Shown here: positions 2,500-54,976 of the stretch, in pieces
How the letters are laid out: each line of letters opens with the position of its first letter
Position numbering within the stretch: the first letter of the stretch is position 1
Assembly: GCA_016703535.1 (NCBI GenBank)
Contig: JADJBV010000002.1
Location: 2,177,721-2,241,720, forward strand
DNA: 64,000 nucleotides
Direction of reading: 5' to 3'
DNA from: Deltaproteobacteria bacterium
GTDB taxonomy: Bacteria > Myxococcota > Kuafuiibacteriia > Kuafuiibacteriales > Kuafuiibacteriaceae
Notes under the pieces: model-generated
Seen by the model: only the letters and a program-made list of their open reading frames with translations
Databases searched by the model: none
What the model was told of the DNA's origin: nothing
Made by a program: the position numbers and the translations under genes

Positions 2500-4329
2500 T
2501 TAGCCGTTCGACAAGAGCGCGTAGGCCATCGCCGCCGCCAAGGACAGGCCAAGGGCCACCGCGGTGAAGCCGAAGACGCGATAGGAGATGGCCCAAACCA
2601 AGGACGGCGGGGCCTCCATGACCAACTCGCCGAGGCGGCCTTCGGCCTGGAGCCGCTTCCACTGCTCCGGGCGCTCCTCCCGCAGCTCCTCCTCCGAGAT
2701 CCGGCCGTCGAAGATCACCGTGTCCATCGGGAACTTCTCGGGTCGGAAGTGCGTGTTGAAGAAGTGCACGGTGAAGATGAAGCCGGTGGCGAGGAGGGCC
2801 TCGTCCGAGTGCACGATGGTCGCCAAGTTGAAGAACCACCCCGGCACCAGGTGAGCGGCGGCCTCCGGGAACCAGAGCATGAGCCCACTCAGGCCGATGG
2901 CGAACATGCCCCAGAACACGGCCAGGAAGTCGAACTTCTCCCAGTAGGTCCATCGATCGAAGCTGGGCCGCGGCCCTCGGAAGGTGAACCAGCGGAACAT
3001 CGCGATGATGTCCCGAAGGTCGCGCAGGTTGGGGAACAGCGAGTCCGGTCCCCAGAGCCGAGCCCACCAGCTGCCGCCGGGGCGTTGGCGATCGAAGAGG
3101 AAGCGGAAGCTCATCCCCAACGCGACGATGAAGTACCCAAAGGTGATCACCGCGGCGCTGTGGTGGATGGCCCGGGCCCGGTCTGGTCCGCCGACCCAAC
3201 CCATCAGCGTGTGGCCCCAGCCGGTGCCGCTGAACTTCAGCGGCAGGCCTGTGAACGCCAGGGCGAGGAAGCTGACCACCACCACCAGGTGGAGCCCGAT
3301 CTGCACCGGGGTGAAGCGACGATAGGTCTTGCCGTGGGCGCTGGGACGGGGGACCGGGGGCGTCGGGTTGTTGCGGCGTTCGACGAATGCGCGCAGGGCC
3401 CACAACGCTGAGTGCACCCAGAAGAAGAAGAAGGTGCCGACCAGCAGCGAGGTCATTCCGATCCGGGTCCAGTACAACGCCGGGCTCTTCACCCGGTCGC
3501 CGTCTTCGGCGTGGGGGATGAACTCCACGAAGGAGGAGGTGGCGCCGGCGTGGCACTGGCCGCAGGTCGCGACCAGGTGGTTCGGGGAGACGCTGGACTC
3601 GGGATCTTCGGCCTTCCGCACCTCGTGTGAGCGGTGGCAGTCAGCGCAGCCCGCGACCTTCTCCGGGTAGCCGAGCCTCACGTTTTTGCCGTGAAAGCTC
3701 TGGAAAAAGGTCTCGCCGGCGATCCAGGTGACCTCGTTTTTCTCCATCTTCTCCCGATCGTCGTGGCACTCGAGGCAGGCCATGGTGTGGAAGGCGCGCC
3801 CTTTTTCATCGTTGTCGATCTTGGCCACGGTGTGGGTCGCGTGACAGTCGGTGCAGGTTGGTGCGTCGAAGTGGCCTTCCTTCAGGGCGGCGTAGTGGGT
3901 CGAGGCGAAGTAGGGCGCCTGGCGTGAGTGGCACCCGGCGCAGGTCTCGGCGGTCCTGAGCTTGTCGCCCTTGTGTGACTTGAGGGTGTGGATGTCCGAG
4001 TGGCAGCCCACACAACCCGCCGGGAGTCGCTCGCTGTTGTGGATGCTTCCTTCGTGTTGCTCCGCCTCCTTTTCGTGGCAGCGGGCGCATTCGGTCGAGA
4101 CGAAGGCCGCGGCACACTGCTGATCGCCGGAAGTGGGCGCCGCTTGGCTGTCGTCCTTCTGGTGGCAGGCGGTGCAGGTGAGATCAGCGTGGACCGAAAC
4201 GTCGTAGCGTTGCCCCGGCACCTGCTCCTCGTGGCAGGTCAAGCAGGCGCTGGTCCCCTGCGCCGCCATCGCAACGCTCGGAGAGACCAGGAGCTGGGCG
4301 AGGAGCAAGGTGCGGGTGGCGGTAGACAT
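2500..4329 (-). CDS. CbcL-like quinol:periplasm oxidoreductase. An N-terminal periplasmic 9-heme c-type cytochrome is fused to a C-terminal HydC/FdnI-like diheme cytochrome-b membrane domain.
   Basis: 609 aa. A signal peptide is followed by nine CxxCH motifs (CLTCH, CTACH, CARCH, CVGCH, CAGCH, CTDCH, CLECH, CADCH, CGQCH). About 280 aa of polytopic membrane sequence with conserved His residues (HLVVVVSFLALAFTGLPLKF, HHSAAVITFGYF, VHSDEALLATGFIFTVHFFNTHF) is typical of Ni/Fe-hydrogenase or formate-dehydrogenase b-type subunits. Order and heme count match Geobacter CbcL. It is the last gene of the minus-strand operon, 13 nt after the upstream gene. Confidence 0.8.
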   Translation of the reverse strand: MSTATRTLLLAQLLVSPSVAMAAQGTSACLTCHEEQVPGQRYDVSVHADLTCTACHQKDDSQAAPTSGDQQCAAAFVSTECARCHEKEAEQHEGSIHNSERLPAGCVGCHSDIHTLKSHKGDKLRTAETCAGCHSRQAPYFASTHYAALKEGHFDAPTCTDCHATHTVAKIDNDEKGRAFHTMACLECHDDREKMEKNEVTWIAGETFFQSFHGKNVRLGYPEKVAGCADCHRSHEVRKAEDPESSVSPNHLVATCGQCHAGATSSFVEFIPHAEDGDRVKSPALYWTRIGMTSLLVGTFFFFWVHSALWALRAFVERRNNPTPPVPRPSAHGKTYRRFTPVQIGLHLVVVVSFLALAFTGLPLKFSGTGWGHTLMGWVGGPDRARAIHHSAAVITFGYFIVALGMSFRFLFDRQRPGGSWWARLWGPDSLFPNLRDLRDIIAMFRWFTFRGPRPSFDRWTYWEKFDFLAVFWGMFAIGLSGLMLWFPEAAAHLVPGWFFNLATIVHSDEALLATGFIFTVHFFNTHFRPEKFPMDTVIFDGRISEEELREERPEQWKRLQAEGRLGELVMEAPPSLVWAISYRVFGFTAVALGLSLAAAMAYALLSNG

Positions 4330-13954: not shown

Positions 13955-15157
13955 ATGTTCGATCATGAAGATCACCGAGAGCTGGCCAAGCGGCTGGATC
14001 TATTTCACTTCGAAGAGGTCGCGCCGGGCATGGTGTTTTGGCACCCCCGGGGCTGGGCCGTTTACCGCCGGCTGGAAGAGATCGTGCGGCGGAGATCCCA
14101 ACGAGAGTTGTTCGAGGAGGTCCGGACGCCCCAGCTCTTGCGCCGGGCGGTCTGGGAAGAGAGCGGCCACTGGCAACACTTCAAGGAGGGGATGTTCGCC
14201 CTCCTGGACGGCGCCGAAGACGCCGCGGTGAAGCCGGTGAGTTGCCCCGGCCACGCGCACCTGGTGCGTCGAAGGGCTCCGGGGTATCGGGCCCTGCCGA
14301 TCCGCATCTTCGAGCTGGGCCTGGTGCACCGAGACGAGCCGAGCGGCGCGTTGCAAGGCCTCTTGCGCTTGCGACAGTTCACGCAGGATGACGGCCACGT
14401 GTTCTGCCGGCCCGAACAAGCCGAAGCCGAACTCTTGCGGTTTTTGAGTGGAGTGGCCCCGTTTTATCAGGCCTTCGGCTTCGAGAAGGTCCGCTTCGCG
14501 CTTTCTTTGCGGCCCGAGTCCCGGGCCGGCGCCGAGGCCGCCTGGGATTGGGCCGAAGGTGTGTTGAGCAAGGTGCTCGACGGCCTCGGCCACGGCTTTT
14601 CGGTGCAGCCGGGTGGTGGCGCCTTTTACGGCCCGAAGGTGGAGGTGGTGTTGTCCGATCGGCTGGGTCGGGAGTGGCAATGTGGCACGATCCAGCTGGA
14701 CGTGGTGCCCGAGCGTTTTGGTCTGGAGTATGTGGAGGCCGACGGGAGCCGAAAGCCGCCGGTGATGTTGCACCAGGCCCTCTTCGGATCGCTGGAGCGA
14801 TTTATCGCCATGGTCCTCGAGCAACACGGGGCACGGCTGCCAGCGTGGCTTTCGCCCGAGGCGGTGGTGCTCCTCCCCATTGGCCCCGAGGCCGCCGGGC
14901 AGGTGTCCCGCTGGGCCGCGGACCTCCGGGATCAGGGCGTGGCCGCGGCGGTCGACGCGAGGGAGGAGTCCTTGTCCCGACGGATCGCCGAGGCCCACGA
15001 TCGGGGCGTCTCCGAGGTTTGGGTGGTCGGTCCCGCCGAGCTCGCCGCGGGTATGGTCTCCCGGCGCCGGGCCGGTGCCTCCGAGGTACGCCCCTTCGCC
15101 GAGTTGGCACCCGAGCTCATCGAACGTTGTCGACCCCCCGCGGTGGTCTACGGCTGA
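13955..15157 (+). CDS. Threonyl-tRNA synthetase paralog with a class-II catalytic core and anticodon-binding domain only. The N-terminal TGS and editing domains are absent.
   Basis: The start MFDHEDHRELAKRLDLFHF..APGMVFWHPRGW aligns with the start of the ThrRS catalytic domain (E. coli DHRKIGKQLDLYH..APGMVFWH). ThrRS-specific zinc ligands and motifs are present: VSCPGH, motif 2 HRDEPSGALQGLLRLRQFTQDDGHVF, HQALFGSLERF and motif 3 GGAFYGPKVE. The C-terminal anticodon-binding domain is present. The track ORF 13745..15157 carries an upstream 70-aa junk extension. Confidence 0.8.
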   Translation: MFDHEDHRELAKRLDLFHFEEVAPGMVFWHPRGWAVYRRLEEIVRRRSQRELFEEVRTPQLLRRAVWEESGHWQHFKEGMFALLDGAEDAAVKPVSCPGHAHLVRRRAPGYRALPIRIFELGLVHRDEPSGALQGLLRLRQFTQDDGHVFCRPEQAEAELLRFLSGVAPFYQAFGFEKVRFALSLRPESRAGAEAAWDWAEGVLSKVLDGLGHGFSVQPGGGAFYGPKVEVVLSDRLGREWQCGTIQLDVVPERFGLEYVEADGSRKPPVMLHQALFGSLERFIAMVLEQHGARLPAWLSPEAVVLLPIGPEAAGQVSRWAADLRDQGVAAAVDAREESLSRRIAEAHDRGVSEVWVVGPAELAAGMVSRRRAGASEVRPFAELAPELIERCRPPAVVYG

Positions 15158-15160
15158 GGT

Positions 15161-15763
15161 TCAGGGCGCGCCCAAAAACGGGCCCTGGGGTTGGTACTCG
15201 AGGCGAGCGGCACCTTTGGCCGCCGCCTCGGGTCCAGCGATCCGCCGCACCAGGTGGAGGGCCAGATCGATCCCCGAGATCACACCGCCGGCGGTCACCA
15301 AGTTGCCATCGTCGACAACCCGTTCCCGCACCACCACCGCCCCACTTTCGGCGAGAGCCGACAGCGCCACGTGGTGGCTCACCGCCCGCCGCCCCTTGGT
15401 GATGCCCGCCGCCGCCAAGATCATGCTCCCGGTGCACACCGAAGCCATACTTTTGCCCGCCGCCGACAACTCAGCGAGTCGCGCGGGCAACACCCCTCGT
15501 TGAATCTCCGCCCAAGCCCCCACCGGTCCCCGAGCCGCCCAAGCCCCCCCCGGCACCACCACCCAGTCCCAAGAATCGTCGAGCACCCCGGTCGCCTCCA
15601 AGCTCAACCCATGGGTCGCGGTAAACCGCAGTTGCCCATCGAAGGAGACCAACTCGGTGTGAAGCGCCGCGCCCGCCAACTCCGCGGCCCGCAACACTTC
15701 AAACGGCTCCACCACATCCAGCTCATCGAAGCCCTGAAACAACGGGATCGCCAAACGGATCAT
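15161..15763 (-). CDS. DJ-1/PfpI (ThiJ) family protein
   Basis: Start at MIRLAIPLFQGFDELDVVEPFEVL. Nucleophile-elbow context ASVCTGSMILAAAGI. About 200 aa, typical for the family. Confidence 0.8.
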   Translation of the reverse strand: MIRLAIPLFQGFDELDVVEPFEVLRAAELAGAALHTELVSFDGQLRFTATHGLSLEATGVLDDSWDWVVVPGGAWAARGPVGAWAEIQRGVLPARLAELSAAGKSMASVCTGSMILAAAGITKGRRAVSHHVALSALAESGAVVVRERVVDDGNLVTAGGVISGIDLALHLVRRIAGPEAAAKGAARLEYQPQGPFLGAP

Positions 15764-15849
15764 GCCGCCCCTCCTAAAGCCCAAGCCCCCACCAGTCCAG
15801 CCCCAGGTCCTCCCGCCCACCTCCCGCAGCCCCAAGCCTCATCCTCACG

Positions 15850-16135
15850 CCCGCAGCCTCACGCCTCAGCCCGACGCCTCAGCCCGACGCCTCAGCCTCA
15901 CGCCAAGCCCGACGCCTCACCCTCACGCCAACGCCTCAGCCCCCCGCCTCATCCTCAAGCCTCAGCGACACGCCTCATCCTCAAGCCTCAGCGACACGCC
16001 TCAGCCCCCCGCCTCATCCTCAAGCCTCAGCGACACGCCTCAGCCCCCCGCCTCAGCGACACGCCTCAGCCCCCCGCCTCAGCGACACGCCTCAGCCCCC
16101 CACCTCAGCCCCCGCCTCAGCCCCCCACCTCCCAC
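15850..16135. repeat. Tandem repeat array A: degenerate 13-nt period (CGCCTCAGCCCCC / CGCCTCAGCGACA) with a 26-nt super-unit GCCTCATCCTCAAGCCTCAGCGACAC in 3 copies
   Basis: Seen directly in the sequence. About 20 units with a C-rich plus strand. The G-rich minus strand has G5-6 runs spaced by CTGAGGC, which gives G-quadruplex potential. The region is non-coding and lies upstream of the DJ-1 gene. Confidence 0.7.
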
Positions 16136-16150
16136 GCTCGCAGCTTCGGC

Positions 16151-16279
16151 GTAGGCGGGGGGACCCTCTCCCGTAGCGAACAGTCTGGGGCAGGAGGGTC
16201 GGGGCCCCAGGGGGCCCAGGACGGGCCCCTCTGTTCGCGAGGGAGAGGGTCCCCCCGCCGAAAGCCGAAGTGTACCTCG
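16151..16279. repeat. About 130-nt imperfect inverted repeat (long hairpin/cruciform). Arms GCTTCGGC..GGCGGGGGGACCCTCTCCC..GCGAACAG pair with CTGTTCGC..GGGAGAGGGTCCCCCCGCC..GCCGAAG.
   Basis: Left arm ~16151-16191 and right arm ~16238-16279 pair as 7+19+7 bp with two internal loops. The central ~46-nt loop itself contains GGGGCCCC palindromes. The hairpin sits between repeat arrays A and B. Confidence 0.6.
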
Positions 16280-16284
16280 GCCCC

Positions 16285-16535
16285 CCCGCAACCCACCTCA
16301 CGCAACCCACGCCCGCAGCCCACCTCACGCAACCCACCCCGCGCAACCCACCTTGCGAATCCACCGCCCCGCAACCCACCTTGTAAAGCCCAGCGCTCGC
16401 AACCCAACTTGCGAATCCACCTCGCGCAACCCAACTTGCGAATCCACCTCGCGCAACCCAACTTGCGAATCCACCGCCCCGCAACCCACCTTGCGAAGCC
16501 CAAGCGCCCGCAATCCACCTTGCGAACCAACAACC
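16285..16535. repeat. Tandem repeat array B: about 8-9 degenerate copies of a 25-29-nt unit CGCAACCCA(A/C)CTTGCGAATCCACC(T/GCCC), each with a small palindrome CGCAA-N6-TTGCG
   Basis: Seen directly. The units are contiguous with no unique spacers. Every unit carries a 5-bp inverted repeat with a 6-nt loop. The array lies downstream of the ABC permease gene, which runs convergently on the minus strand. Confidence 0.7.
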
Positions 16536-16560
16536 ACCCCGAGCGCCTCACCGCGCGAAG

Positions 16561-19127
16561 TTATTCGTAGGAGAGGGCCTCAGTGACATCCATCCGAGCC
16601 GCCCGCCGCCCCGGCAACAGCCCTGCCAAGGCCGCGGTGACCACCACGGTGATGGCCACCCGAGCCGCCGCGGCCGCCGGGAAGCTGTAGTCGACGTGCC
16701 AGCCCGTGGAAGCCAAGGCGACGGTGCGAACGAAGACCAGGCCCATCGGGACCCCCAAAAAGAGGCCGGTGAGGGCCGACGCGAGCCCAAGGAAGCCGGC
16801 CTCGGCCACCACACTGACGGCGACCTGCCGCTGAGTGGCACCGACCGCCCGCAACACGCCGATCTCCCGGATCCGATCGATGACCGCGGCCAACATGGTG
16901 CCGACCACCCCAAGGAGGGCCACCGCCAAGGTGATGAAGTCGGTGGACTTCAGGATCGCCAAAGATTGGGTGACCACTCGGCGAATCTCCTCTCGCAGCT
17001 TGGAGGCCGGGGTGATGAACAAAGCGCGGTCGTCGCCGAAGCGCCGCTTCACCTCGGCCACCACCTGATCCACGTCGACCCCGTCCTTCAGGTAGAGGTC
17101 CATCGAGTCGACCAGATCGTCTTGCCAGTACTCCTGGAACCAGCGCCGATCGATGAAGCCCAGGCCCTGGTCCGAGGTGTAGTCCACGAAGATCGCCCGC
17201 ACCTCGAACTTATGCCGGCCGGTGGGGGTGTCGATCTCCAAGGTGTCACCCGGGTGTTTGCCGAGGCGCCGGGCGCCATTTTCGGACAACATGATCCGGG
17301 GCTCGGCGTAGAGCTCACCCCGCTGCACCTCACCTTCGGTGTACTTCAGCTTCCGCTTTCGGCGCTCCTGCTGGGCCAGATAACGGTCGGTGTTGAGCGA
17401 CAAGAGCTGGAGCCGCAGCGGGCCGACCTCTTGGTTGATGATCCGGGCGGGCTGGACCACGTCGACGCCGGGGATGTCGGCCAGGCGCTCCATCATCTCG
17501 GGGCGGAAGGGCACGTTGTGTTGGTCGGCCAATGGAGAACCGGCGGTGATCAAGACGTCGGCGGGGACCGACTGCTCGACCCAGTCCATCATCGACATCT
17601 CCAAGGAGCGGCCCCAGCTGGCGATGCAGACCCCAGAGGCCACCGAGACCATCAAGGCCGCGACGGTCAAGACGCTGCGCTCCATCGAACGCTCCACGTT
17701 GTCGACGGCCAGGCGCCCTGGCACACCCAACCAGGCCTCGAAGATTCCGCCCATCGCTCGCCGAAAGATCAAGACGAAGCTGGGGACGAACAAGGTGGCC
17801 GCCACCACAAAGAGGCCGAGGGACACAAAACCCAAGACCAAAACCTCGGCCCCCAACCACGCGGTGGCGAAGGCCGGCAACAAACACAGGAGCCCCGCGA
17901 ACAACATCTTCCGATGCGGCAAGCGGCGCCGCGCCGTGGCCGAACTTCGGGCCCGGCGTAAGGTCTCCACCGGATCGACGTGGGCCGCGGCCCGGGCTGG
18001 CAGGTAGGCGGCCACCAAGGTCGCGATCATCCCCGACAACACCCCGTAGATCCCAAGATCCAAGGTGATCTTGGGCGGGGTCGGCTGGATCGGGGCGTAG
18101 AACTGGCTGACGTTGCCGGTGGTCTGATCGAGCGCCAGTTGGGCCAAACCGTGGGCCAACAACAAGCCAAATAGGCCGCCGACCAGGCCCAAGATCCCCG
18201 CCTCCAAACAGAAGGTCAACACGACCCGCCCTTGGGACACGCCGATCGCGCGGAGGATTCCGATCTCGCGCCGCCGCTGGGCCACCGCCACGCTGACCGC
18301 GTTGTAGATCAGGAACATGCCGACCATCAGGGCAATCAGGCCCGCCACTTGGATGCCGGCCTCCAGCGGCCCCAAGATGCCCGCCAGGTGTTGGGCCCGG
18401 CCCTCGGGGCCCTCGACCCGGCCCCGACCGCCGACCACCTTTTGCAAGACAACTTGCATTGCCGCCGCGGTGTGTTCGGGCGCCACCGCGATCTCGATCC
18501 GATCGACCCGTTCGCCCCGGCCGAAGCTGAGCATGAGCGCCTCGGTGTACATCACCGCCACTTGCCCGCCGAAGGCCGCGGTGGGGCCTTCGTCCTCGAG
18601 GATGCCGCGGATCCTAAAGGCCTTGGTGCCTTCGCCGGTCACCAACTCCAAGGCGCCGCCCAACTCGAGCTTCTGCCGCTCGGCCAACTTGCGGCTCACC
18701 AAAATGCCGACCGGATCGTTGATCAGCTCCAGCGGATCTTCGACCGCGTCTTGGCCGGCCGTCGACTTAAACGGCAAAAAGTAGCGGTCGCCCAAGAAAT
18801 CGACGCCCAACACCAACAGCGGACCATCGCCGCCCGGCTGACGCGTGATCACCTCCAAGGTGCCGGCGGCGTGGGCCACCCCTTTGGTGTCCAAGATCGC
18901 CTCGACCAACTCACTCGGCACCCCGACGTCACCGTTGGTGACCACCAGATCGGCTTTACCGGCGACTCGACCCACGGTTTCGGTGAAGGCCCCGACCAAG
19001 CTGCGGTTGACCGCGGTGGTGGCGACCAACATGGCCACCCCCAGTCCAATTCCGAACAACACCAACAAGGTGCGGAGCGGCGAATGCACCAAGTGCCGGA
19101 GGGAGATCTCGCGGAGCAGCGACAACA

Positions 19128-19128
<1 letters not shown>
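16561..19128 (-). CDS. ABC transporter permease, MacB/FtsX-like with duplicated FtsX domains (855 aa)
   Basis: N-terminal TM helix, a large periplasmic domain, then FtsX 4-TM bundles twice. The start overlaps the stop of the upstream ATPase gene (TGATG). Confidence 0.85.
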
Positions 19129-19820
<692 letters not shown>

Positions 19821-20085
19821 CCGGCCCCGGAAGCTAGCAGGGTGCGGAAAAAGGGGCACTACTGCGGAAGGCGATCAGGGGGCTGCGAGCGGCGGACTCT
19901 TCGCTGCGCTGCTCAACGTACCGAATCAAGTACGCTTCCGCTGCTCGCTCCTCGTGCGCCGCTCTCGCTCCCCTGCTCGCCTCCTCGCTACGCGCCTCTT
20001 TCCCCGCGCCCTGCTCGTACACGCGGTTCGGGATCGCGAGGTTTGGCTGCGGGGTTTGCTCGAACATGTGGTAGATGCCCCACCC

Positions 20086-21627
20086 ATGCACGACCCGAAG
20101 TTGGCCGCCGAGGCCCTGGCCGAGCTCCCCGCCGACATCGCCGACAGCCCACTCTTCAACGGCGACCTGGCGCCGGTGCCCAAAGGGCGGCGGGACTGGA
20201 CCACCTACAACTTCGCGGCGCTCTGGATCTCGATGGCCCACTGCATCCCAACCTACATGTTGGCGGGCGGGTTGATCTCGGTGGGCATGAACTGGTGGCA
20301 GGCGCTGCTGACCATCGGCCTCGGCAACATCATCGTGCTCGGGCCGATCCTGCTCAACGCCCACCCGGGCACCAAATACGGGATCCCGTTCCCCGTCTTG
20401 GCTCGCTCTTCCTTCGGTACGGTCGGCGCCAACGTCCCGGCGGTGTTGCGGGCGATCGTCGCCTGCGGCTGGTTCGGCATCCAGACCTTCATCGGCGGTG
20501 AGGCGGTGAAGACCTTCCTCGAGGCCCTCTGGCCTGCCTACGCCGGGCTCGGTGGAGGCGTTCAGATCTTGGGGCTGTCGATCCCCAGCGCCATCACCTT
20601 TTTGGTCTTTTGGGCCCTCAACATCTTGATCATCTACCGAGGCATGGACGCGGTGCGGGTGTTCGAGAACTGGGCCGCGCCGTTGGTGTTGGTGATGGCC
20701 GCGGTGCTGATGATCTGGGCCGTATCGGTGGCTGGCGGCCTGGGGCCGATGTTGTCTCAGCCGTCGAAGTTCGAGAGTTTTGGCGCCTTCTGGAAGGTCT
20801 TTATCCCGTCCCTGACGGGCATGATCGGCTTTTGGGCCACCCTCTCCTTGAACATCCCGGACTTCACCCGCTTCGGCAAAGGTCAAAAGGAGCAGATGCT
20901 CGGCCAGACCTTGGGCCTGCCCACCACCATGATCGCTTTTTCGGCGATGGGGGTGGTGATCACCTCGGCGTCCCACGCGATCTTGGTGGGCACCCCGGTT
21001 GAGAAGTTGTGGGATCCGGTCTTCATCTTGGCTCAGCTCACCTCCGCCGCACCGCCGCCCGGCCTCGCCGAACCGCTGATCGCTTCGCCGGGCATTCGGC
21101 TCCTGGTGGCGGTCGTGGCCTTGTTCGGCGTTGCGGTGGCGACCATCTCGGTGAACATCGCCGCCAACGTGGTCAGCCCCGCCAACGACTTTGCCAACTT
21201 GGCGCCGCGGCTGATCAGCTTCAAGACCGGCGGCCTGATCACCGGCCTGCTCGGCATCGCGATCATGCCCTGGAAGTTGTTGTCCAGCGCCGAGGTCTAC
21301 ATCTTCAACTGGTTGATCGGTTATTCGGCGCTGCTCGGCCCGATCGCCGGGATCATGGTCGCCGACTACTGGCTGCTCCGGAACAAGACCTTGGACGTGC
21401 CGGATCTCTATCGCCCCAACGGCCGTTATGCCGGCGTCAACTGGATCGCGATCGCCGCGTTGTTCATCGGGGTGTTGCCGAACCTGCCGGGCTTTTTGCA
21501 GAGCGCCAAACTCACCCAGATGGAGCCCGGGTTCTTCGACGCGATCTATCCTTACGCCTGGTTCACGGGCTTCCTCTTGGCGGGTGGGCTCTACCTGCTC
21601 GCCATGAAGCGGAAGCCGGCGCGCTGA
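20086..21627 (+). CDS. NCS1 family nucleobase:cation symporter (cytosine/allantoin/hydantoin permease type)
   Basis: Start at MHDPKLAAE (ATG verified in frame). The 12-TM profile and sequence are typical of NCS1 (WISMAHCIPTYMLAG, GWFGIQTFIGG, NIPDFTRF). Confidence 0.8.
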   Translation: MHDPKLAAEALAELPADIADSPLFNGDLAPVPKGRRDWTTYNFAALWISMAHCIPTYMLAGGLISVGMNWWQALLTIGLGNIIVLGPILLNAHPGTKYGIPFPVLARSSFGTVGANVPAVLRAIVACGWFGIQTFIGGEAVKTFLEALWPAYAGLGGGVQILGLSIPSAITFLVFWALNILIIYRGMDAVRVFENWAAPLVLVMAAVLMIWAVSVAGGLGPMLSQPSKFESFGAFWKVFIPSLTGMIGFWATLSLNIPDFTRFGKGQKEQMLGQTLGLPTTMIAFSAMGVVITSASHAILVGTPVEKLWDPVFILAQLTSAAPPPGLAEPLIASPGIRLLVAVVALFGVAVATISVNIAANVVSPANDFANLAPRLISFKTGGLITGLLGIAIMPWKLLSSAEVYIFNWLIGYSALLGPIAGIMVADYWLLRNKTLDVPDLYRPNGRYAGVNWIAIAALFIGVLPNLPGFLQSAKLTQMEPGFFDAIYPYAWFTGFLLAGGLYLLAMKRKPAR

Positions 21628-45434: not shown

Positions 45435-47249
45435 TCATCGCTCCTGGATCTCGACCTCGGCGCCTTCGACGTGGAACTCGACCCGACGGTTTTGGGCCCG
45501 ATTGTCTGGGCTGTTGTTGGGGACCAGCGGTTGAGTTTCGCCGAAGCCCGCGGGCTCTAGCAGACCTTGGTCCACGCCTTGGGCGACCAGGTAAGCGACC
45601 ACACTCTTGGCCCGCTTCTCCGAGAGGCGCAGGTTGCCCGAGTCGTTGCCGACGTCGTCGGTGTGGCCTTCGACCCGAACCTTGGTCAACTTGTTCCGCT
45701 TGATCACCGCGGCCACGTCGTTGAGGAGCGCGTAGGAGCGGGCCTCGATCACCGCCGAGCTGGTCTTGAAGTAGACCTTGTCCAAGATCTCGATCCGCTC
45801 ACCCTTCAGCACCGCCAGCTGCTTCTTGGCGCAGCCGCCGTTCTCCAGGACCCCCGGCTCGTCGGGGCACTGATCCAGGCGATCGGCGATGTTGTCGTGG
45901 TCTCGATCGGTGTCGGGGCAGCCCTTGTTCTCCTTGACCCCCGGCGCCGAAACGCACTTGTCGGCCACGTCGAGCACGCCGTCGGCGTCGTTGTCCGGAT
46001 CCGGGCAGCCGTCTTGGTCCTCCCACTGGTCCACGTCTTCGGCGTCGTTCGGGCACTGATCGGCCTTGCCGCGCAGACCGTCGCCGTCGGGGTCGGGCAC
46101 CTCGTCGGGGCAACCGTCCTGATCTTCGTGTTCGTTTTGGGTCTCGGGCTCGAGGCGACACCGATCGGCGGTGTCCGGGATCTGGTCGCCATCGTCGTCG
46201 GGATCGACGCAGCCGTCTTGGTCTTCGAACTCGTCCTTGTCCTCCGCCACGTCCGGGCAGGTGTCGTCCGGATCGTTCAAGCCGTCGCCGTCGCTGTCGG
46301 TGGGCGGGGCCCAGGTGTAGCGCAGGCCGAGCAGGGCCCGGAAGTCGGGGGTGCCGTAGGCCTTGGTGAGGCCCACGCCGCCCGCGGCGTAAGCGGTGAG
46401 GGGGATCGGGAAGTCGTAGGCCAGGCCAAAGTCGAGTTCGCTGGCGACCGCCTCCGCGGACTCGAAGGCCAGATCCAACACCGTGGCCATCGAATAGGAG
46501 AGGTCCAGCTCCAGCGGCGGGCCGCCCACCTCCGCCAGCCGGGCGCCGAGGCCGACCTTCAAGAAGAACTCGTCATCGACGGCGAGGTTCACGAAGTCGA
46601 CCTTGTTGCGCATTCGAAAGCCGACGTTGCCGGCCAAGCGCATCAGGCCAAAGCTGCGAGAGGCCAAGAGGGCCGGGCGGAAGCCCACGGTGTCGTCGCC
46701 GAAGTAGGCCTCTTCGGTGGCGGTGGGCAAAGACACCGCCGCCATCACCGCCAGGTCCAGGCCCTGATCGGCCTGGCGCAAGATGCGGATCTTGGGGATC
46801 AGCCTCAGATCTCCGAGGCCAGCGCTGCTCAACTCCGGGAGGGTCCCGACCACCCCGGGCAAGAGGTCACTGCGGCTCTGGCCGAGGATCACCGGCAAGG
46901 CCAAGCCCAGCTCCACCCACTCGAACAGGGCGATGGCCCCGCCGACCTCACCACCCCAACGGGAGGCGACCAGGGAACCTTGGCGTTCGTCGTCGCTCTC
47001 TCGATAGAGCACCAAGGGGTCGTTGGCGTAGCCCATCCACAACCAAACGTTCCACGACAAATGCCGTGGAACACCGGCCCACTCGGTGTCCAGAATGCCG
47101 CCCCGATCGATGGTCAAGGCGAAGCGTTCGATGCCGAAGCTCCTTCGCTCCGGCACGTTCTGGGCGTTGGCCTGCTGGGCTGCCGCGCCGGTCGCCAACA
47201 GGAACACCAGCGCCGTGGTGACCCGCCGCCGTAGGCCTGAGGTGCGCAC
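45435..47249 (-). CDS. OmpA-family protein module: signal-peptide-like N-terminus, beta-rich domain, thrombospondin-type-3 (TSP3) Ca-binding repeats and a C-terminal OmpA peptidoglycan-binding domain. It lies in the same continuous frame as the giant ORF below.
   Basis: A candidate GTG start at 47249 gives VRTSGLRRRVTTALVFLLATGAAAQQANAQ (n-region, h-region, AXA). TSP3 repeats follow (DSDGDGLNDPDDTCPD, EDQDGCVDPDDDGD, repeated). The C-terminal OmpA domain is VYFKTSSAVIEARSYALLNDVAAVIKRNKLTKVRVEGHTDDVGNDSGNLRLSEKRAKSVVAYLVAQGV...NRRVEFHV. No stop codon separates it from the upstream module. Confidence 0.55.
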   Translation of the reverse strand: MRTSGLRRRVTTALVFLLATGAAAQQANAQNVPERRSFGIERFALTIDRGGILDTEWAGVPRHLSWNVWLWMGYANDPLVLYRESDDERQGSLVASRWGGEVGGAIALFEWVELGLALPVILGQSRSDLLPGVVGTLPELSSAGLGDLRLIPKIRILRQADQGLDLAVMAAVSLPTATEEAYFGDDTVGFRPALLASRSFGLMRLAGNVGFRMRNKVDFVNLAVDDEFFLKVGLGARLAEVGGPPLELDLSYSMATVLDLAFESAEAVASELDFGLAYDFPIPLTAYAAGGVGLTKAYGTPDFRALLGLRYTWAPPTDSDGDGLNDPDDTCPDVAEDKDEFEDQDGCVDPDDDGDQIPDTADRCRLEPETQNEHEDQDGCPDEVPDPDGDGLRGKADQCPNDAEDVDQWEDQDGCPDPDNDADGVLDVADKCVSAPGVKENKGCPDTDRDHDNIADRLDQCPDEPGVLENGGCAKKQLAVLKGERIEILDKVYFKTSSAVIEARSYALLNDVAAVIKRNKLTKVRVEGHTDDVGNDSGNLRLSEKRAKSVVAYLVAQGVDQGLLEPAGFGETQPLVPNNSPDNRAQNRRVEFHVEGAEVEIQER

Positions 47250-50200
47250 CGGCGCCGCTAGAAGTGCCCTCCGGCGCCCGAACACGCCGAACGCGAGCAG
47301 AAGCAGCCCAACTGCCACCGAGCCGAGGGGCCCTGGAGTCGGCCCGTGGGAGGTCGAACAACCACAGCCGCCCCCCGCCAGGCCGATCCCGTCGACGACG
47401 CCGTCGCCGTTGTCGTCGACGTCGCAGCCGGCCCCTTGGCCGTCAGCGTCCAGGTCCAACTGATCCGGGTTGGGCAGGGCCGGACAGTTGTCGCTCCCAT
47501 CGGGGACGCCGTCGCCGTCTTGGTCGGCGCTGCCCAGCTGATCGTCGGCCGGGTTGAGCGGATCTCGTTCACCGTCGTCTTTGCGCCCGTTTTGGTTGGT
47601 GTCTTCGTCGCCGTCTTCGGCGCCGCCGTTGTCGGTGTCCGGGTCGACCGCCGAGGTGGTGGTGCCCGGATCCGCGTCCGGCACGAAGAAGCCCGCCCCG
47701 ACGTTGGTGTCGGCGTTGGGGGTGGTCACGCCGAGTTCGGTGCCGTCGAAGAGGCCGTCGTCGTCCGAGTCGGGATCCAGCGCGTTGATCGCGCCGTCCT
47801 GATCGCCGTCGACCCCGGGGTTGGGTTCGTCGCCGTCGAGCACGCCGTCGTCGTCGCTGTCGGCGTCTTGGGGATCGGTGCCCAGGTCGGCCTCTTCGTC
47901 GTCGCTGAGGCCGTCCTGGTCCGAGTCGGTCGGGGCCTGGTCGTCGCTGCCCAAGTTGGGATCGGTCTCGCCGCCGTCGATGCGGCCGTCGTGGTTGGCG
48001 TCTTCGGCGCCGTCGTCCACGCCGCCGTCGTCGGTGTCTTTGTCGAGGGGATCGGTGGTGGTGGTCGGATCTTGATCCGCCACGAAGGCTCCGGCGGCGA
48101 CGTCGGTCCCGGTCCCCGGGGTGGTCACGCCCAGCTCGGTGCCGTCCAAGATCGCGTCGTTGTCGCTGTCCGGATCCAGGGCGTTGATCAGACCGTCGCC
48201 GTCGCTGTCCACCCCGGGCCGCGGTTCAGCGCCATCTTTTATGCCGTCGTCGTCGCTGTCGGCGTCATCCGGATCGGTGCCGAGCTGGACCTCGACGTCA
48301 TCGGGCAAACCGTCGCCGTCCCGGTCGTTGGCTTGGTCGTCGCTCGGGTCCAGCGGATCCCGCTCCCCCGGATCCCGTTGGCCGTCGAGATCCAGGTCCT
48401 CGAGGCCGTCCGAGAGGCCGCCGCCGTCGCTGTCCGGATCCACCGCCGAGGTGGTGGTGTTGGGATCGGCGTCGGGCACGTAGTTCCCCGCCGCCACGTC
48501 GGTGTCGGCGTTGGGTTGGGTGACGCCCCGTTCGGTGCCGTCGAAGAGTCCGTCGCCGTCGCTGTCGGCGTCCAGCACGTTCACTCGGCCGTCGCCGTCG
48601 GTGTCGTGACCCGGGTTGTTCTCTTGGCCGTCGATCACCCCGTCGTCGTCGCTGTCGGCGTCCGCCGGATCCGAGCCGAGGGCGGCCTCTTCGTCGTCGC
48701 TGAGGCCGTCGCCGTCTCCATCGGTCGGGGCCACGTCGTCGGCGGCCAGGTTGGGGTCGGTCTCGCCCGCGTCGATGCGCCCGTTGTGGTTGGCGTCTTC
48801 GGCGCCGTCCTCGACCGAGCCGTCATCGCTGTCGGCGTCGAGGGGATCGGTGGTGTTCGACGGATCCGCGTCCGGCACGAAGGCGCCGCTCGAAGCGTCG
48901 GTGCCCGGGCCGGCCACGGTGACGCCCAACTCGGTGCCGTCGAAGATCCCGTCGTCGTCGCTGTCCGGATCGTTGGCGTTGACCAAGCCATCCCCGTCGC
49001 TGTCGACGCCGGGCATCCGTTCACTGCCATCCCCAACGCCGTCGTCGTCGCTGTCGGGGTCATCCGGGTCGGTCCCGATCGCCACCTCTTCATCATCGGG
49101 CAGGCCATCCCCGTCCCGATCGTTTTCACAGGCGTCGCCGATCCCGTTGCTGTTGCCGTCGATCTGGTCGGTGTTGATCACCGTCCGGCAGTTGTCGGTG
49201 CCGTCGACGATGGTGTCCATGTCGCTGTCCAGGTCTCGGAAGTCCGGGGTCCCGTCGCCATCCGAGTCGACCGGCGGCGTGGTGCCCAGGTTGTCCCCGG
49301 CCTCGTCCTCGTCGTTGACCCCGTCCATGTCGCTGTCCAGGTCCAGGTAGTCAGCGGTGCCGTCGTTATCGGTGTCGACCGGGGCCGTACCCAGGTTGGT
49401 GTCGCCGGCTTCATCCCGGTCCAAGATCCCGTCGTCGTCCGAGTCCAGGTCCTGGAAGTTGGGGGTGCCGTCGCCGTCGGTGTCGCCGGTGCCCTCGACG
49501 TCGTCGGGGATGCCGTCGCCGTCGGTGTCCAAGAGGTCGTCGTTGCGGTTCCTTGGGTTCCGTTCGCCGGCGTCGACCCGACCGTTGCGATCGGCGTCTT
49601 CCACGCCGTCGTTGACCGTGCCTCGATCGGTGTCGGCCAAGACGGGGCTGGTCGTGGTGGTGGGATCCGCGTCGGCGCGGAAGTTGCCCCGGGCCACGTC
49701 GGTGGCGGTGCTGGTGGTGGTCACGCCCAGTTCGGTGCCGTCGAAGATCCCGTCGCCGTCCGAGTCCGGATCGAGGACGTTGATCGTGCCGTCGTTGTCG
49801 CTGTCGTCGGCGTAGTTGGGTTCGTCACCGTCCAACACGCCGTCGTCGTCGGTGTCCGCGTCGTTGGGATCACTCCCCAGCCGCACCTCTTCGGCGTTGG
49901 ACAGGCCGTCGCCGTCGGTGTCCGCCGAGGGCAGGCGGTCGTCGCTGGGATCCAGGGGGTTGCGTTCCCCAGCGTCGACCCGGCCGTTTTTGTTGGTGTC
50001 TTCGGTGCCGTCCCGCAAGCCGCCCCGGTCGGTGTCGGGATCGATCGGGCTGGTGGTGGTGGTCGGATCCGCATCGGCCACGAAGTGCCCGGCCGCGACG
50101 TCGGTGTCGGGACCGGCGGTGGTCACGCCGAGCTCGGTGCCGTCGTAGAGGCCGTCGTTGTCCGAATCCGGATCCAAAAGGTTGGGCGCGCCGTCGGCGT

Positions 50201-53200
50201 CAGCGTCGGCGGCGAAGTTGGGCTCTTCGCCGTCCCGCACCCCGTCGTCGTCGCTGTCGGCGTCGTTGGGGTCGCTGCCCAGCTCCGCTTCGACCACGTC
50301 CGGGAGGCCGTCCCCGTCGGTGTCGACCAAGGCCGGGACGTCGTCGGCGGCCAAGTTGGGGTTCCTTTCGCCGAGATCGACCCGCCCGTTGCGGTTCAGA
50401 TCTTCGGCGCCGTCGTTGACCGTGCCGTTGTCGGTGTCGGCGTCCAGCGGATCGGTGGTGCTGGCCGGGTCTTGGTCGGCGAGGAAGGCGCCTCGGCTCA
50501 GATCGGTGTCGGCGTCCGGCGTGGTGCGGCCGAGTTCGGTGCCGTCGTAGAGGCCGTCGTCGTCGCTGTCCACGTCTCGGGCGTTGATCAACCCATCCCC
50601 GTCGCTGTCGACCAGGGGCGAAGGCTCCGCGCCATCGGGCGCGCCGTCGTCGTCGGTGTCGGCGTCGTTCGGATCGGTCTCGTTGGCGTCCTGGAAGCCG
50701 TCCCCGTCGGCGTCTTCGTCACCATCGGCCAGGCCGTCGCCGTCGGTGTCGGCGGCGTTGGGGTTGGTGGTGCTGGTCGGGTCGGTGTCGGGGACGAAGG
50801 CTCCTGCACCCGGATCAGTGTCCGGGGTCTCGGCGGCGGTCAGGCCCCGTTCGGTGCCGTCGTGGAGGCCGTCGCCATCGGTGTCCGCCTCGACCGGTGA
50901 GGACTCGCCCGGGTCCAACACGCCGTCGCCGTCGGCGTCTTCGGTGCCGTCCAACAAACCATCGTCATCGCTGTCGGCATCCAGCGGCGAGGAGCCCCAA
51001 GTGTCCACCTCGACGCCGTCCCCCACGCCGTCGTCGTCGCTGTCCGGATCGTTGGGATCGGTGCCCAGGCCCCCTTCGCGCACGTTGGTCAGGCCATCGC
51101 CGTCGTCGTCGGCGCCGACCTCGATCTGCACCGTCGCCGTGTCGAAGCCGCCGTTGCCGTCGCTCACCGTGTAGGTGAAGCTGTCGGTCCCGACAAAGCC
51201 GGGGTTGGCGGTGTAGGTGATGGTGCCGTCGCCGTTGATCACCGCCGTGCCGTTGGCGGGCAGGCTGACGCCGTCGATCGCCAGGGTGTCGCCGGCGTCG
51301 GGATCTTGGTCGTTGCCCAACGCCGCGATCACCACCGACTGACCCGGATCGGCCTCGGCCTCGTCATCGGCCGCCACCGGCGCGTCGTTGGTCGGGTTGA
51401 TGATGATCGTGACCTGAGCGGTCGAGCTTTGGCCGTCCGCGTCGGTCACCTGGTAGGTGAAGGTCGCGGTCCCGTTCTGGTCCGGCGCCGGGGTGAAGAT
51501 GATGGTCCCGTCGGGTTGGGCCACCGCGGTGCCTTGGGCCGGGGCGCCGGTGACGCTGACCGAAACCGGGCCGTCGCCTAGGCCGCTGTCGTTGGCCAAC
51601 ACGTTGACGGTGACCGCTTGATCTTCGTCGGTGGTGGTGTTGTCGGCGGCGGCGCTGGGGGTGTCGTTGCGCGGCTGGACCGTGACGGTGACGGTGGCGG
51701 TGGACTGCTGCCCGTCGGCGTCGGTGACCGTATATTGGTAGCTGTCGGTGCCGTTGAAGTCGGCCCGGGGCGTGTAGCGGACGGTCCCGTTGGCGTTGAC
51801 CACCACCGTACCGTTGCTCGGCTGGGCCGCGATGCTGACGGTGACCGGGCCGTCGCCCAGGCCGCTGTCGTTGGCCAAGAGGTTGCTGTTGACCGTGCCG
51901 TCTTCGGCCACGGTGACGGCGTTGTTGTTGGCCACCGGGGTGTCGTTGACCGCGGTGACGGTGATCTGGACCGTGGCGGTGTCGTTTTGGCCGTCGGCGT
52001 CGGTGACCCGGTAGGTGAGGGTGACGACGCCGTTGAAGTCGGCGGCCGGTGTGTAGGTGATGGTTCCGTTGGCGTTGGCCACCGCGGTGCCGCTCCCCGG
52101 TGGGGTGACGATGGTGACCGTCACCGGCGTGTTGCCCAGGCCGGTGTCGTTGCCCAATACATTAAATGTACCGGCCGAGTCCTCGGCGGTGTTGACCAGG
52201 TCGTTGACCGCGTCCGGGATGTCGACGGTGGGATCCAGGTAGTCGGGGATGGTGTCGCCGTCGAGGTCACCGGTTTCGGTGGCGTCGGGGCGGCCGTCGC
52301 CGTCGCTGTCGGTGTCGTACCAAGGGGGGACTCCGTCGCCGTCGATGTTCAGCCCGTAGGTGGTGCCTTGGGCCAGTTCGGTGCTGGTGGGGATGGTGTC
52401 GCCGTCGTCGTCCGAATCCCGGAAGTTGAGGAGGCCGTCGTTGTCGACGTTGCCGGTGCCTTCGGCCGAGTCCAGGACGCCGTCGTTGTCGCTGTCGGTG
52501 TCCAGGGCGTCGATGGGACCGTTGCCGTCGGTGTTGATCGGCAAGCCGCCGTTGGTCTCGACGCCGTCGTTGATCCCGTCGTTGTCGCTGTCGGTGTCCA
52601 GCGGATCGGTGCCGATGCCGACCTCTTCGCCGTCGTCAGCGCCGTCGTTGTCGGTGTCGACGTCGGCCGGATCGGTGCCGTAGGTGCAGAGCTCGTCGAT
52701 GTCGCTGAGGGTGTCGCCATCGGTGTCGGTGGCGGCGCTCAAGGCCCGGACCTGGATCGTCCCGGACTGGGTGCTGCGGGCCCAGCTGTAGGTGTCGAGG
52801 AAGGCGTTGTTCCCCTTCGATGTAGCGCTGTAGTTGCCCCAGGCGCGGCCGTTGATGTTGGCCAACACCGCGTCCGCGTAGTTGCCAGAAGCCATCCCGT
52901 TGGCGCCCGACGCGACCAACCCTTGCTGGCCGTTGGGCATGTTGACCTCGTTGGCTTGGACCGCCGCGTCGTTCCAATACATCGCCAGGCCGGTGCGCCC
53001 GTTGGCGGCGTCGACCTCGAAGAACTGCATGCCCTGGTAGCTGGTCTCGATGTCTTGGGCCAGGTAGTGGACTTCACCGACCTGGATCGAAGCCCGGCAG
53101 TCGTAGTTGCCCGTGGGCACGAAGTTGCCGGCGTTGTTGCGCCCGTCCCAGGCCCGGGTGTTGGCGCCGGGGGTGGTGGTGCCGATCAAAAACAGGTCCG

Positions 53201-53996
53201 CCGTGGAGGTGCGGTCGAACTGGCCGTCTTGGTTGAGGTCGCAGATCAAGTGATAGGTTCCGGTGACGTCGGTGGTGAAGCTGAAGAGGCCCGTCGAGGT
53301 CCCGGGGACGATGGCGCTGCAGGTCTCCGCCGCGCCCACCTGGGTGAAGGTGAAGTTGCTGACCGCCGGCACCAAGGGGTTGTAGGTCGCGAGGGTCGGG
53401 GGGTTGAGGTAGATCTGGTAGAGCGGCGTGAAGGTGTTGCCGGCGCTGGGCACGCTGCGGCCGGCGTTGGCGCCGTTGACGCCCGTCTGGTTCATGCCCA
53501 TGTTCCAGATGAAGCCCTGGAGTCCATTGAAGCGAATGTCGATGACCGCGTTGCGGTTGGCAGCGCCGCCGTTCACCAAGGCGTAAAGTGAGGTGTTCAT
53601 CGCCGATGCGCCGCCGGCGTAGGTGCCGGTGTCGAAGTACCAGCGGGTCGACCACAACCGCCCGCCCGCTTGCACTGGGTTGTTGACCCGCAGGTCCCAG
53701 GCGCCGCCTTGGTCGTTGGTCAAGGTCACCCGATAGGCGCCGTTGCCGTTGCCGTTCAGGTTGGCGGTGGCGCCGTTGCCCAAGGTGGCGATCTGGGTGC
53801 CGGCCGGATTGAAGATCCGGGCCTGGCCCGCGCCGCTCCAAGTGATGGTCTCGACGGTGGCGTCCAAGATGTCGACGTTCAACACCGTGGTGTTGACCAT
53901 GTCCGATTGGGTGCCGAGGGTCGCGGTGCCTTCGGCTCGGGCGATCAGCGGAGCCAACAAAAGGGAGGCGAAGATCGACGTGGCAATTCGCGACAT
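47250..53996 (-). CDS. Giant secreted repeat adhesin module (about 2250 aa): signal peptide, unknown beta-rich N-terminal domain, ~5 cadherin-like/Ig-like repeats, ~9 large TSP3 Ca-binding repeat modules, then a MYXO-CTERM-like sorting signal
   Basis: Signal peptide MSRIATSIFASLLLAPLIARAEG. Cadherin-like repeats (VTVTAVNDTPVANNNAVTVAEDGTV..., about 100 aa each) lie around 51.0-52.2 kb. Dozens of TSP3 motifs (DTDGDGLxDxxE, DSDDDGxxDG) lie around 47.4-51.0 kb. The frame ends with GCGCSTSHGPTPGPLGSVAVGLLLLAFGVFGRRR (Cys-rich GCGC, TM helix, RRR). The reading frame then continues into the OmpA module without a stop. Confidence 0.55.
47262..47375 (-). other. MYXO-CTERM-like tripartite sorting signal (GCGCS / ~13-aa spacer / TM helix / RRR) located internally in the 8.56-kb ORF
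   Basis: Translation GLAGGGCGCSTSHGPTPGPLGSVAVGLLLLAFGVFGRRR was verified codon by codon on the minus strand. A TAG lies 2 codons downstream in the +1 frame. Confidence 0.6.
47400..51000. repeat. Intragenic tandem repeats: about 9 copies of a ~420-bp module encoding TSP3 repeat units (DSDxDGLxDGTELGVTTP..DTDVAAGxFVxDADPxTTTDPLDxDTDxGGVxDGxEDxNxNGRxDxGExDPNL)
   Basis: The periodicity is visible in both the nucleotide and protein sequence. The antisense shadow ORFs 47346..50900 and 51618..53591 come from the same repeats. Confidence 0.7.
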
Positions 53997-54141
53997 TGAA
54001 GCGAGTTTATCGTTCGAATCGGTGGCGAACGTAAGTTCTCGGCTCCCCCAACCGATCCGGGCCGCGCTGGCCGCGGGAGATGCCCCAGGATGAGACGTCC
54101 GGGTGGGGTCGACGAGGTGGCCGCGGGGATGGCCGCTGCGG

Positions 54142-54976
54142 TCAGCTCAGGCCCAACACTTCGCGGACGGTGGTGAAGGGGAGGGCCTTCACGAGGTACT
54201 CGAGCTTGCCAAACATCCGATCGAGCCCGTTGTAGCCGCGGAAGTCGCGCAAGGTACCTTGCGAAAAGCGCGGGATCTCCGGATCGATCTCCCAGGGGTG
54301 GAGGTAGACGATGGTGGGCTGGCCTTCGGCCTGGTTCACGTGGGCGAGGGCCTTCGCCAAGATCTCCACCGGAAAAAGCCGCAGGTAACCACCGCCCGCG
54401 ACCGGCAGGTTTCGCCCGAACTTGCGATAGGTGGTCAGGGGGAACTCCCAGAGTTTTTTTCCGTGGATTGAAAGCTCAACCGGGAAACGGGAGTAGTCGG
54501 CGATGCCGTAGCGGTCGTGCACGATCGGGAAGATCGACGACGAATACCCAAAGCCCTCTTCGACCAAGATCTCATGGGCCCACAAGGACTGACGGGTCAC
54601 CGAATACGTCGGGGCCCGATAACCAACCACCCTGGCGCCAATCAAGCCCTCGAGGAGATCCTTCACCTGCCGCAGATCCGCTCGGAACTCAAGCGGGGGT
54701 CATCTCGAAGACCAGCCGGTGCCAGTAGCTGTGGGCCGCCACCTCGTGACCACGCCGGTGGATCTCTTTGACCAAGGCCCGTTGGCGATCGGCGACCCAA
54801 CCCAACACGAAGAAGGTCGCCTTGATCCCGTGTTGATCGAAGAGATCGAGCAGTCGCCGGGTCTGTTGATCACTCCGCATCGGTTGGGCCGGCCACAGGT
54901 CTCGTGGCACCCGCTGGTCGAGGTTCTGGACCGTGAAGTACTCCTCCACGTCCACCGTCATCGCGTTCTGCACCAC
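54142..54976 (-). pseudogene. Polysaccharide deacetylase (NodB-homology, PEP-CTERM/EPS-locus subfamily with DUF3473 C-terminal half), interrupted by a 1-nt frameshift at a C5/G5 run near 54694-54699
   Basis: The N-terminal piece (54689..54976) carries NodB motifs TVDVEEYF, ATFFVLGWVA and GHEVAAHSYWH and ends ...RLVFEMTPA*. Shifting one base reads straight on as PPLEFRADLRQVKDLLEGLIGARVVGYRAPTYSVT, the start of the 54142..54666 ORF. Confidence 0.6.

Follow-up and report, generated by a model that had tools for sequence, protein, structure and literature searches.

A non-coding insertion with a conserved stem-loop between two variable G-rich minisatellites in an ABC-transporter/DJ-1 operon from an uncultured species of Myxococcota

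The DNA analysed here, referred to as the window, is a stretch of 64,000 nucleotides (nt) from an uncultured Myxococcota species (contig JADJBV010000002.1, assembly GCA_016703535.1, positions 2,177,721 to 2,241,720). It harbours an ABC-transporter/DJ-1 operon that contains a non-coding insertion of 797 bp. The insertion forms the intercistronic region at 15764-16560, and both bordering genes are co-directional on the minus strand. The upstream gene (16561-19128, stop codon at 16561-16563) encodes a MacB/FtsX-type ABC permease of 855 amino acids (aa) with the Pfam domains FtsX and MacB_PCD, and it is directly preceded by an ABC ATPase gene (19128-19859, minus strand). The downstream gene (15161-15763, ATG at 15763) encodes a DJ-1/PfpI family protein of 200 aa. 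A preliminary description of this DNA had considered the ABC operon to be convergent with the DJ-1 gene. However, the ATPase, permease and DJ-1 genes are all located on the minus strand, and the gene that converges on DJ-1 encodes a class II aminoacyl-tRNA synthetase of about 400 aa similar to threonyl-tRNA synthetase (ThrRS; 13955-15157, plus strand). A protein 100% identical to the permease exists on record, and the protein MBK6690041.1, which is 99.5% identical to it, is adjacent to the DJ-1 protein MBK6690040.1. Homologues of the permease come from metagenome-assembled genomes of the Myxococcota/Polyangiales type.

Along the sense strand of the operon (minus), the permease stop codon is followed by a unique linker of 34 nt (16527-16560, CTTCGCGCGGTGAGGCGCTCGGGGTGGTTGTTGG), array B, a small hairpin, the main stem-loop and a conserved flank of 26 nt. 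Behind this flank follow array A, a segment of 67 nt carrying the ribosome-binding site, and the ATG of DJ-1. The 67-nt segment (15764-15830, minus strand) includes a Shine-Dalgarno sequence, AGGAGG, at 15770-15775, and is 100% identical across all conspecific alleles.

The preliminary description had suggested a comparison with the intergenic regions of relatives, which revealed a conserved stem-loop, variable arrays and the absence of the insert from one clade. Three levels were compared: a clade with 87% aa identity, a sister clade with 96% aa identity, and alleles of the same species. The 87% clade (L001-L003, whose permease gene is 80% identical at the nt level) has the same gene order, and its permease stop codon and DJ-1 ATG are separated by 10 bp. 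Therefore, the 797 nt of the window were inserted between two tightly coupled genes. In agreement, positions 16564-15762 of the window correspond to just 28 nt of L001 by BLAST. The N-terminal residues of DJ-1 differ as well (MIRLAIP versus MSTTPTRLAIP). In the sister clade (89% nt identity), the left side of the locus is covered by L005, L006, L008 and L009, and the right side by L082-L091. Its insert is smaller, and consists of four degenerate palindromic units (e.g. GCGCAAGTTAAGTTGCGC), a 14-nt repeat in 2.7 copies and then the hairpin. Between the hairpin and the ATG lie approximately 100 G-rich nt that include a 14-nt repeat in 2.4 copies.

The core of the insert is the main stem-loop at 16154-16259, which comprises a perfect stem of 19 bp, an inner stem of 8 bp (GCGAACAG/CTGTTCGC) and a branched apex of 47 nt. 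The two 19-nt arms (16154-16172 and 16241-16259) are 100% complementary, lie 68 nt apart and form a stronger inverted repeat than any other in the 64 kb. Folding of the sense RNA also places a small hairpin upstream of the main stem (16260-16285, minus strand, GGGGGCCGAGG-UACA-CUUCGGCUUUC). Its 3′ arm, CUUCGGC (16264-16270), can alternatively pair with GCCGAAG (16144-16150) and lengthen the main stem by an optional outer stem of 7 bp (CTTCGGC/GCCGAAG). The long stem between the arrays, which had previously been aligned by hand, held when it was folded computationally: the predicted energy was -114.3 kcal/mol for the minus strand, that is the sense RNA (z = -8.1), and -110.7 kcal/mol for the plus strand (z = -7.1), and none of 200 shuffled sequences matched the folding energy of the region.

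The stem-loop is identical among conspecific alleles except for one mismatch in the loop. Compared with the sister clade, 107 of 118 positions are identical (91%), and for the 3′ half plus flank the count is 63 of 66; in the 3′ flank itself (16125-16153, minus strand, sense UACGCCGAAGCUGCGAGCGUGGGAGG) one of 26 positions differs. Between the same clades, identity at the third codon positions of the two genes on either side is 74.5%, and the excess of the stem-loop over this value is significant (binomial P = 8e-6). Where the 19-bp stem has GA at positions 9-10 in the window, the sister clade has TC; the partner positions have changed as well, with both pairs retained. The sister-clade stem, read from a composite sequence, has one A·C mismatch. 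These comparisons argue for sequence and pairing constraint on a stem-loop core of about 110-130 nt.

The two arrays flanking this core were already noticed in the preliminary description, and Tandem Repeats Finder recovered both of them. Array A (15827-16124, minus strand) consists of about 22 units of 13 nt that are G-rich in the sense direction (GGGGGGCTGAGGC, GTGTCGCTGAGGC, TTGAGGATGAGGC and variants), with a period of 13, 22.5 copies and 73% matches. Array B (16284-16526, minus strand) has about nine units of 27-29 nt, in which the sense unit is TTCGCAAGKTGGGTTGCG followed by 9-11 nt; its period is 27, with 8.8 copies, 81% matches and a sub-period of 14 nt. These arrays, at 15827-16526, are the only non-coding tandem repeats of any size in the 64 kb. 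Matches to the array and arm motifs were neither expected by chance nor found elsewhere in the window. In both arrays, every unit is a direct repeat on the same strand, and the units abut without spacers, so the earlier view that the region is not a CRISPR array stands; a Pfam scan of six flanking ORFs identified no cas genes. A mini-palindrome, CGCAA-N6-TTGCG, had been attributed to each of the units of array B. The exact motif is present in six of the approximately nine units and missing from the three that adjoin the hairpin. In the whole window, chance alone would give about three matches with one mismatch to this motif, versus six exact ones seen. The RNA of array B folds no better than shuffled sequence (z = -1.0).

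Both arrays are G-rich minisatellites, i.e. variable-number tandem repeats (VNTRs), with periods of 13-14 nt and 27-28 nt, and whole units are gained, lost and replaced between strains. The allele of L079 (99.8% nt identity) corresponds to that of the window with two small changes, and in L081 array A is shorter by exactly seven 13-nt units. A larger difference was found in L010 (JGI 3300056850, Ga0558718_11611), which has 98.9% nt identity in the permease gene and comes from the same JGI metagenome as L079. L010 possesses other array-A units, of 14 nt (GGAGGCGTCGGGCT), which are also found in L080, an independent sample that backs the allele. At the position of array B, L010 carries eight 13-nt units of GGCGGGCKTGGGT and no palindromes. 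It retains the start of the linker (the first ~24 nt, with one mismatch), the hairpin with the single loop mismatch, and the 67 nt before the ATG. Unit types are swapped and homogenised within an array even between strains sharing one sample.

Several further observations concern these contigs. In L010, several genes, among them those for the permease, the cytosine/purine permease and DJ-1, are fragmented, which suggests long-read frameshift errors or a decaying strain. The short-read contigs, from more than ten sequencing runs, all end in or beside the stem-loop (3′ ends of L005, L006, L008 and L009; 5′ ends of L081-L091), which is compatible with poor sequencing of a GC-rich hairpin or with mixtures of alleles within samples. 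The permease frame of the ENA contig L007 loses homology after about 570 residues and runs into unrelated sequence (3660-3892); this could reflect a rearrangement, an insertion or a chimeric contig. In L092 (GCA_016794345.1, JAEUKE010000270.1), an 83%-identical DJ-1 gene adjoins Rieske and PilZ genes and not an ABC permease gene, so the linkage of permease and DJ-1 is confined to part of the lineage.

No indication of coding potential was detected in the insert, as the preliminary description had proposed. Pfam gave no match for the four open reading frames (ORFs) inside the insert, and the GC content at the three codon positions of ORFs running through it is flat, e.g. 0.65/0.66/0.75 versus about 0.66/0.44/0.87 in real genes. 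The periods of 13 and 27-29 nt also break the reading frame, and a coding region was rejected on these grounds. The sequence CTGAGG in array A produces TGA stop codons in all three sense frames, and no sense ORF spans the distance from the permease stop to the DJ-1 ATG. A plus-strand ORF of 459 codons (15191-16570) crosses the insert and carries a risk of misannotation. A known RNA family was likewise rejected: the best match in Rfam (E <= 1) was a plant microRNA model with 27.7 bits against a threshold of 110, and it arises merely from the hairpin form of the region.

A promoter and terminator scan found no sigma-70-like promoter and no terminator in the insert. Other candidate signals were dropped. 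A GG-N10-GC spacing before the ATG, seen by eye, could indicate a sigma-54 promoter; this spacing is lost in the sister clade. DnaA boxes or an origin were considered for array B, in which GAATCCACC, a sequence missing from L010, agrees with TTATCCACA at only six of nine positions. An integron attC site is incompatible with the inner stem, GCGAAC/GTTCGC, as attC requires RYYYAAC/GTTRRRY. The GTGTC half-sites of array A all point in the same direction and have no GACAC partner, which does not fit an MrpC-like site.

The insert is the sole stretch of the window with an absolute GC skew above 0.33, and its plus strand contains 50% C and 20% G. The sense strand has 46 tracts of three or more G per 797 nt, about three times the window average, and this asymmetry is present in every allele. 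A motif scan (G3+ N1-7, four tracts) predicted canonical G-quadruplex (G4) motifs on the sense strand at 16096-16133 and 15801-15833. Candidate G4 sequences are (GGCGGGCGTGGGT)4 and the one at 16096-16133. At least one canonical motif was detected in each allele, and in L010 such a motif spans 116 nt continuously. The runs of five to six G separated by 7 nt that had been described for array A occur only at 16096-16133; elsewhere in the array, G6 runs are 20-33 nt apart.

The best reading of these data, which we hold tentatively and at somewhat less than an even chance, is that G-rich minisatellites born by slippage surround a stem-loop that is under constraint as RNA or DNA and by which DJ-1 is uncoupled from the ABC operon; the function is inferred. 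The arrays would expand from short proto-repeats of 13-14 nt by slipped-strand mispairing or unequal recombination, since the hairpin of the sister clade is flanked on either side by a 14-nt repeat in just 2.4-2.7 copies. Stalling of the replication fork at the hairpin and the G-tracts may promote this growth. The exact sequence of the arrays would be immaterial, and they would be dispensable products of slippage. In the sense transcript, the stem-loop may act as an intercistronic barrier that terminates or pauses transcription without a U-tract, or it may shield the 3′ end in the manner of repetitive extragenic palindromic (REP) elements. The G-rich non-template arrays, favouring R-loops or G-quadruplexes, could reinforce this barrier; G-rich non-template strands have been reported to block transcription depending on orientation (PMC3561996, PMC5499740). 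The ancestral tight coupling of permease and DJ-1, with a spacer of 10 bp, would thus be broken, and the read-through into DJ-1 would depend on the allele.

Several points weigh against this interpretation. The stem is followed by UACGCCGAAGCUGCG on its 3′ side and not by a U-tract, and the terminator scan was blank at the stem. The earlier proposal of a terminator, an attenuator or a regulatory region for DJ-1 is plausible given the position directly upstream of DJ-1. The scan also found no promoter-like site for DJ-1, which would then have to rely on read-through. As regards constraint, the comparison comprises only two diverged hairpin lineages, and the hairpin of the sister clade was assembled from two contigs that stem from different samples, with the apex missing. 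Intramolecular templated repair in long palindromes can keep arms complementary without selection. The palindromic units of the sister clade (GCGCAAGTTAAGTTGCGC, TTGCAAG-N4-CTTGCG) sit at the position of array B and can be aligned with the units of the window; they are therefore older than the split of the clades, and may be more than by-products. Finally, the hairpin could be a selfish mobile element.

This last possibility, a non-autonomous element (REPIN-, MITE- or IS200/IS605-derived) that inserted between the two genes, with the arrays being secondary and any effect on expression incidental, appears unlikely. It would explain the presence of the insert in two clades and its absence from the third at the same site, as well as the intercistronic placement, which resembles that of REP elements and bacterial interspersed mosaic elements (BIMEs). 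The two inverted 19-nt arms with a spacer are REPIN-like, GTAG motifs adjoin one arm, and conservation above the synonymous level would also suit a recently active element. Nevertheless, a second copy turned up neither in the 64 kb of the window (up to three mismatches) nor in about 1 Mb of fetched loci (motif search and skew scan), and blastn against plasmids and phages gave no match. Scans for exact patterns in the GTDB representative genomes, in JGI metagenome contigs (two patterns) and in IMG/VR, collections that do not contain the species' own genome, returned no matches. These negative results are weak, as the nearest permease in the genome collection is 63% identical and the JGI scan missed the L010 contig that carries the insert; an element present some 100 times per genome would be expected about once in 64 kb. 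When the ends of the insert were compared by eye with the empty site of L001, no terminal inverted repeat or target-site duplication was seen, although terminal repeats shorter than the 9-nt minimum seed of the repeat search would escape it. Both ends are G-rich on the same strand, and GTAG stands beside one arm only. The proposal of a MITE-like (miniature inverted-repeat transposable element) or REP-like element in the preliminary description thus gained no second copy in the collections searched.

Quite improbable, in our estimation, is that composition and not sequence is selected. Here, a sense strand prone to G-quadruplexes or R-loops would insulate DJ-1 or vary its expression from cell to cell, or a C-rich antisense transcript would serve as a Rho-loading (rut-like) site. 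In the Rho version, the opposite-strand transcript (50-56% C, 15-16% G) would stop antisense transcription from the ThrRS-like gene before it reaches the ABC operon. The stop codons of DJ-1 and the synthetase are 3 nt apart on opposite strands, and the terminator scan found no terminator there, which fits this idea. The extreme skew is shared by all alleles although their units are unrelated, array B of L010 forms the continuous 116-nt G4 motif, and the reported orientation-dependent transcription block agrees with it too. However, the composition of an array follows from the units that seeded it, so the skew can be conserved without being selected; the relative at 87% identity does without the insert; and most G-tract spacings in the allele of the window exceed canonical G4 loop lengths.

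It is very unlikely that the arrays are protein-binding sites (iteron-, operator- or decoy-like) regulating DJ-1 or local DNA transactions, with 16-bp palindromes phased by about 27 bp and recognised by a dimeric regulator. The excess of exact palindromes over the chance expectation, their regular phasing of 27-28 bp and the alignable palindromic units at the equivalent position of the sister clade would be accounted for. Against it, L010 has swapped all of them for non-palindromic 13-mers while retaining flanks and hairpin, number and sequence of units vary between strains, array A has no palindromes, and no regulator gene is adjacent. The suggestion in the preliminary description that array B represents sites for a dimeric protein or small RNA hairpins therefore fits poorly with L010, which lacks such units, and with the folding of the array RNA. 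Equally doubtful would be an undescribed functional module in which a self-expanding, hairpin-nucleated minisatellite sets the read-through into DJ-1 by allele via R-loops or G-quadruplexes, resulting in contingency-like variation of expression at the population level, or which would be the first copy seen of a non-autonomous, array-seeding element family of the Myxococcota. That the insert is functionless junk, a neutral insertion with hairpin and arrays drifting freely, would suit the rapid turnover of the arrays, the missing insert in a close relative and the lack of Rfam or Pfam matches, but it is hardly probable given a hairpin and 3′ flank significantly more conserved than synonymous sites, double stem changes that retain pairing and an invariant 67-nt segment before the ATG within the species.

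Among known systems, the locus is closest to REP/BIME elements or to intercistronic VNTRs such as the mycobacterial interspersed repetitive units (MIRUs); it belongs neither to the BIMEs nor to the MIRUs, and probably not to the REP elements either. It fits the description of a bacterial minisatellite or VNTR, with head-to-tail repeats and polymorphism between strains at the same locus. REP elements are short imperfect palindromes that occur in more than 100 copies per genome, every REP carrying a GTAG/GTGG head (PMC2817692). They are accompanied by a cognate RAYT gene. Similar to the stem-loop described here, REP and BIME sequences are GC-rich extragenic palindromes often located between the genes of an operon, and their stable stem-loops in RNA can protect the upstream mRNA and give differential expression within the operon. 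A REPIN consists of two inverted REPs with a spacer, which matches the arrangement of the arms. In contrast, a single copy is known here, and GTAG (plus strand) stands before and after one arm (16150-16176), whereas the other arm has TTTC and TC. The REPs of a BIME alternate in orientation, while the arrays are direct repeats, G-rich on one strand.

The MIRUs of Mycobacterium tuberculosis are tandem repeats between operon genes whose copy number is polymorphic between strains. Their units measure about 46-101 bp, they occupy dozens of loci, and they contain small ORFs that couple the translation of the flanking genes by overlapping with them. The insert differs in its units of 13-29 nt, in its one known locus and in the TGA codons of array A; because these stops occur in all three sense frames, coupling in the MIRU style is impossible here. 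The G-rich non-template strand of the operon and the predicted canonical G4 motifs resemble sequences known for transcription block, R-loops or G-quadruplexes. However, these represent a physical property and not a family, and the G-tract spacings in the window are mostly non-canonical. With an intrinsic terminator, the insert shares a strong GC-rich stem-loop on the sense strand after a gene; it differs in the missing U-tract and in its size of about 105 nt with a branched apex, far above the typical one. A literature search retrieved no description of such a locus in Myxococcota.

Further features were observed in the neighbourhood of the operon. The synthetase at 13955-15157 matches TIGR00418 (ThrRS) with 393 bits, above the cut-off of 384; the match begins at profile position 170 of 565, and the N-terminal part of ThrRS is apparently absent. 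A 32-nt tandem repeat in 2.7 copies (TTCCCCTGCTCGCTCCTCGTACGCCGCTCTCG) is present at 19936-20020, in the divergent region that separates the beginning of the ABC ATPase gene from a gene on the plus strand (approximately 19954-21627). Similar to the main insert, its strand that is sense for the ABC operon is rich in purines and in G. A minus-strand ORF of 2904 codons at 45435-54146 has a good coding signature and tandem repeats of 399-402 nt and 108 nt at 47582-50564; it resembles a giant repeat-domain protein.

The unusual trait of this locus is a constrained stem-loop, known in a single copy, between two G-rich minisatellites that evolve independently of each other and differ in unit type among co-existing strains. 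The locus opens no long-standing question. The insert could be used as a strain-typing marker for the lineage. If the inferred mechanism is true, it would be a natural case of an operon divided by a structured insert, in which the co-existing alleles of a community differ in their arrays. As a system, the locus may serve to study how hairpins and G-rich tracts drive the birth and turnover of tandem repeats in high-GC bacteria, and whether such inserts tune the expression of downstream genes.

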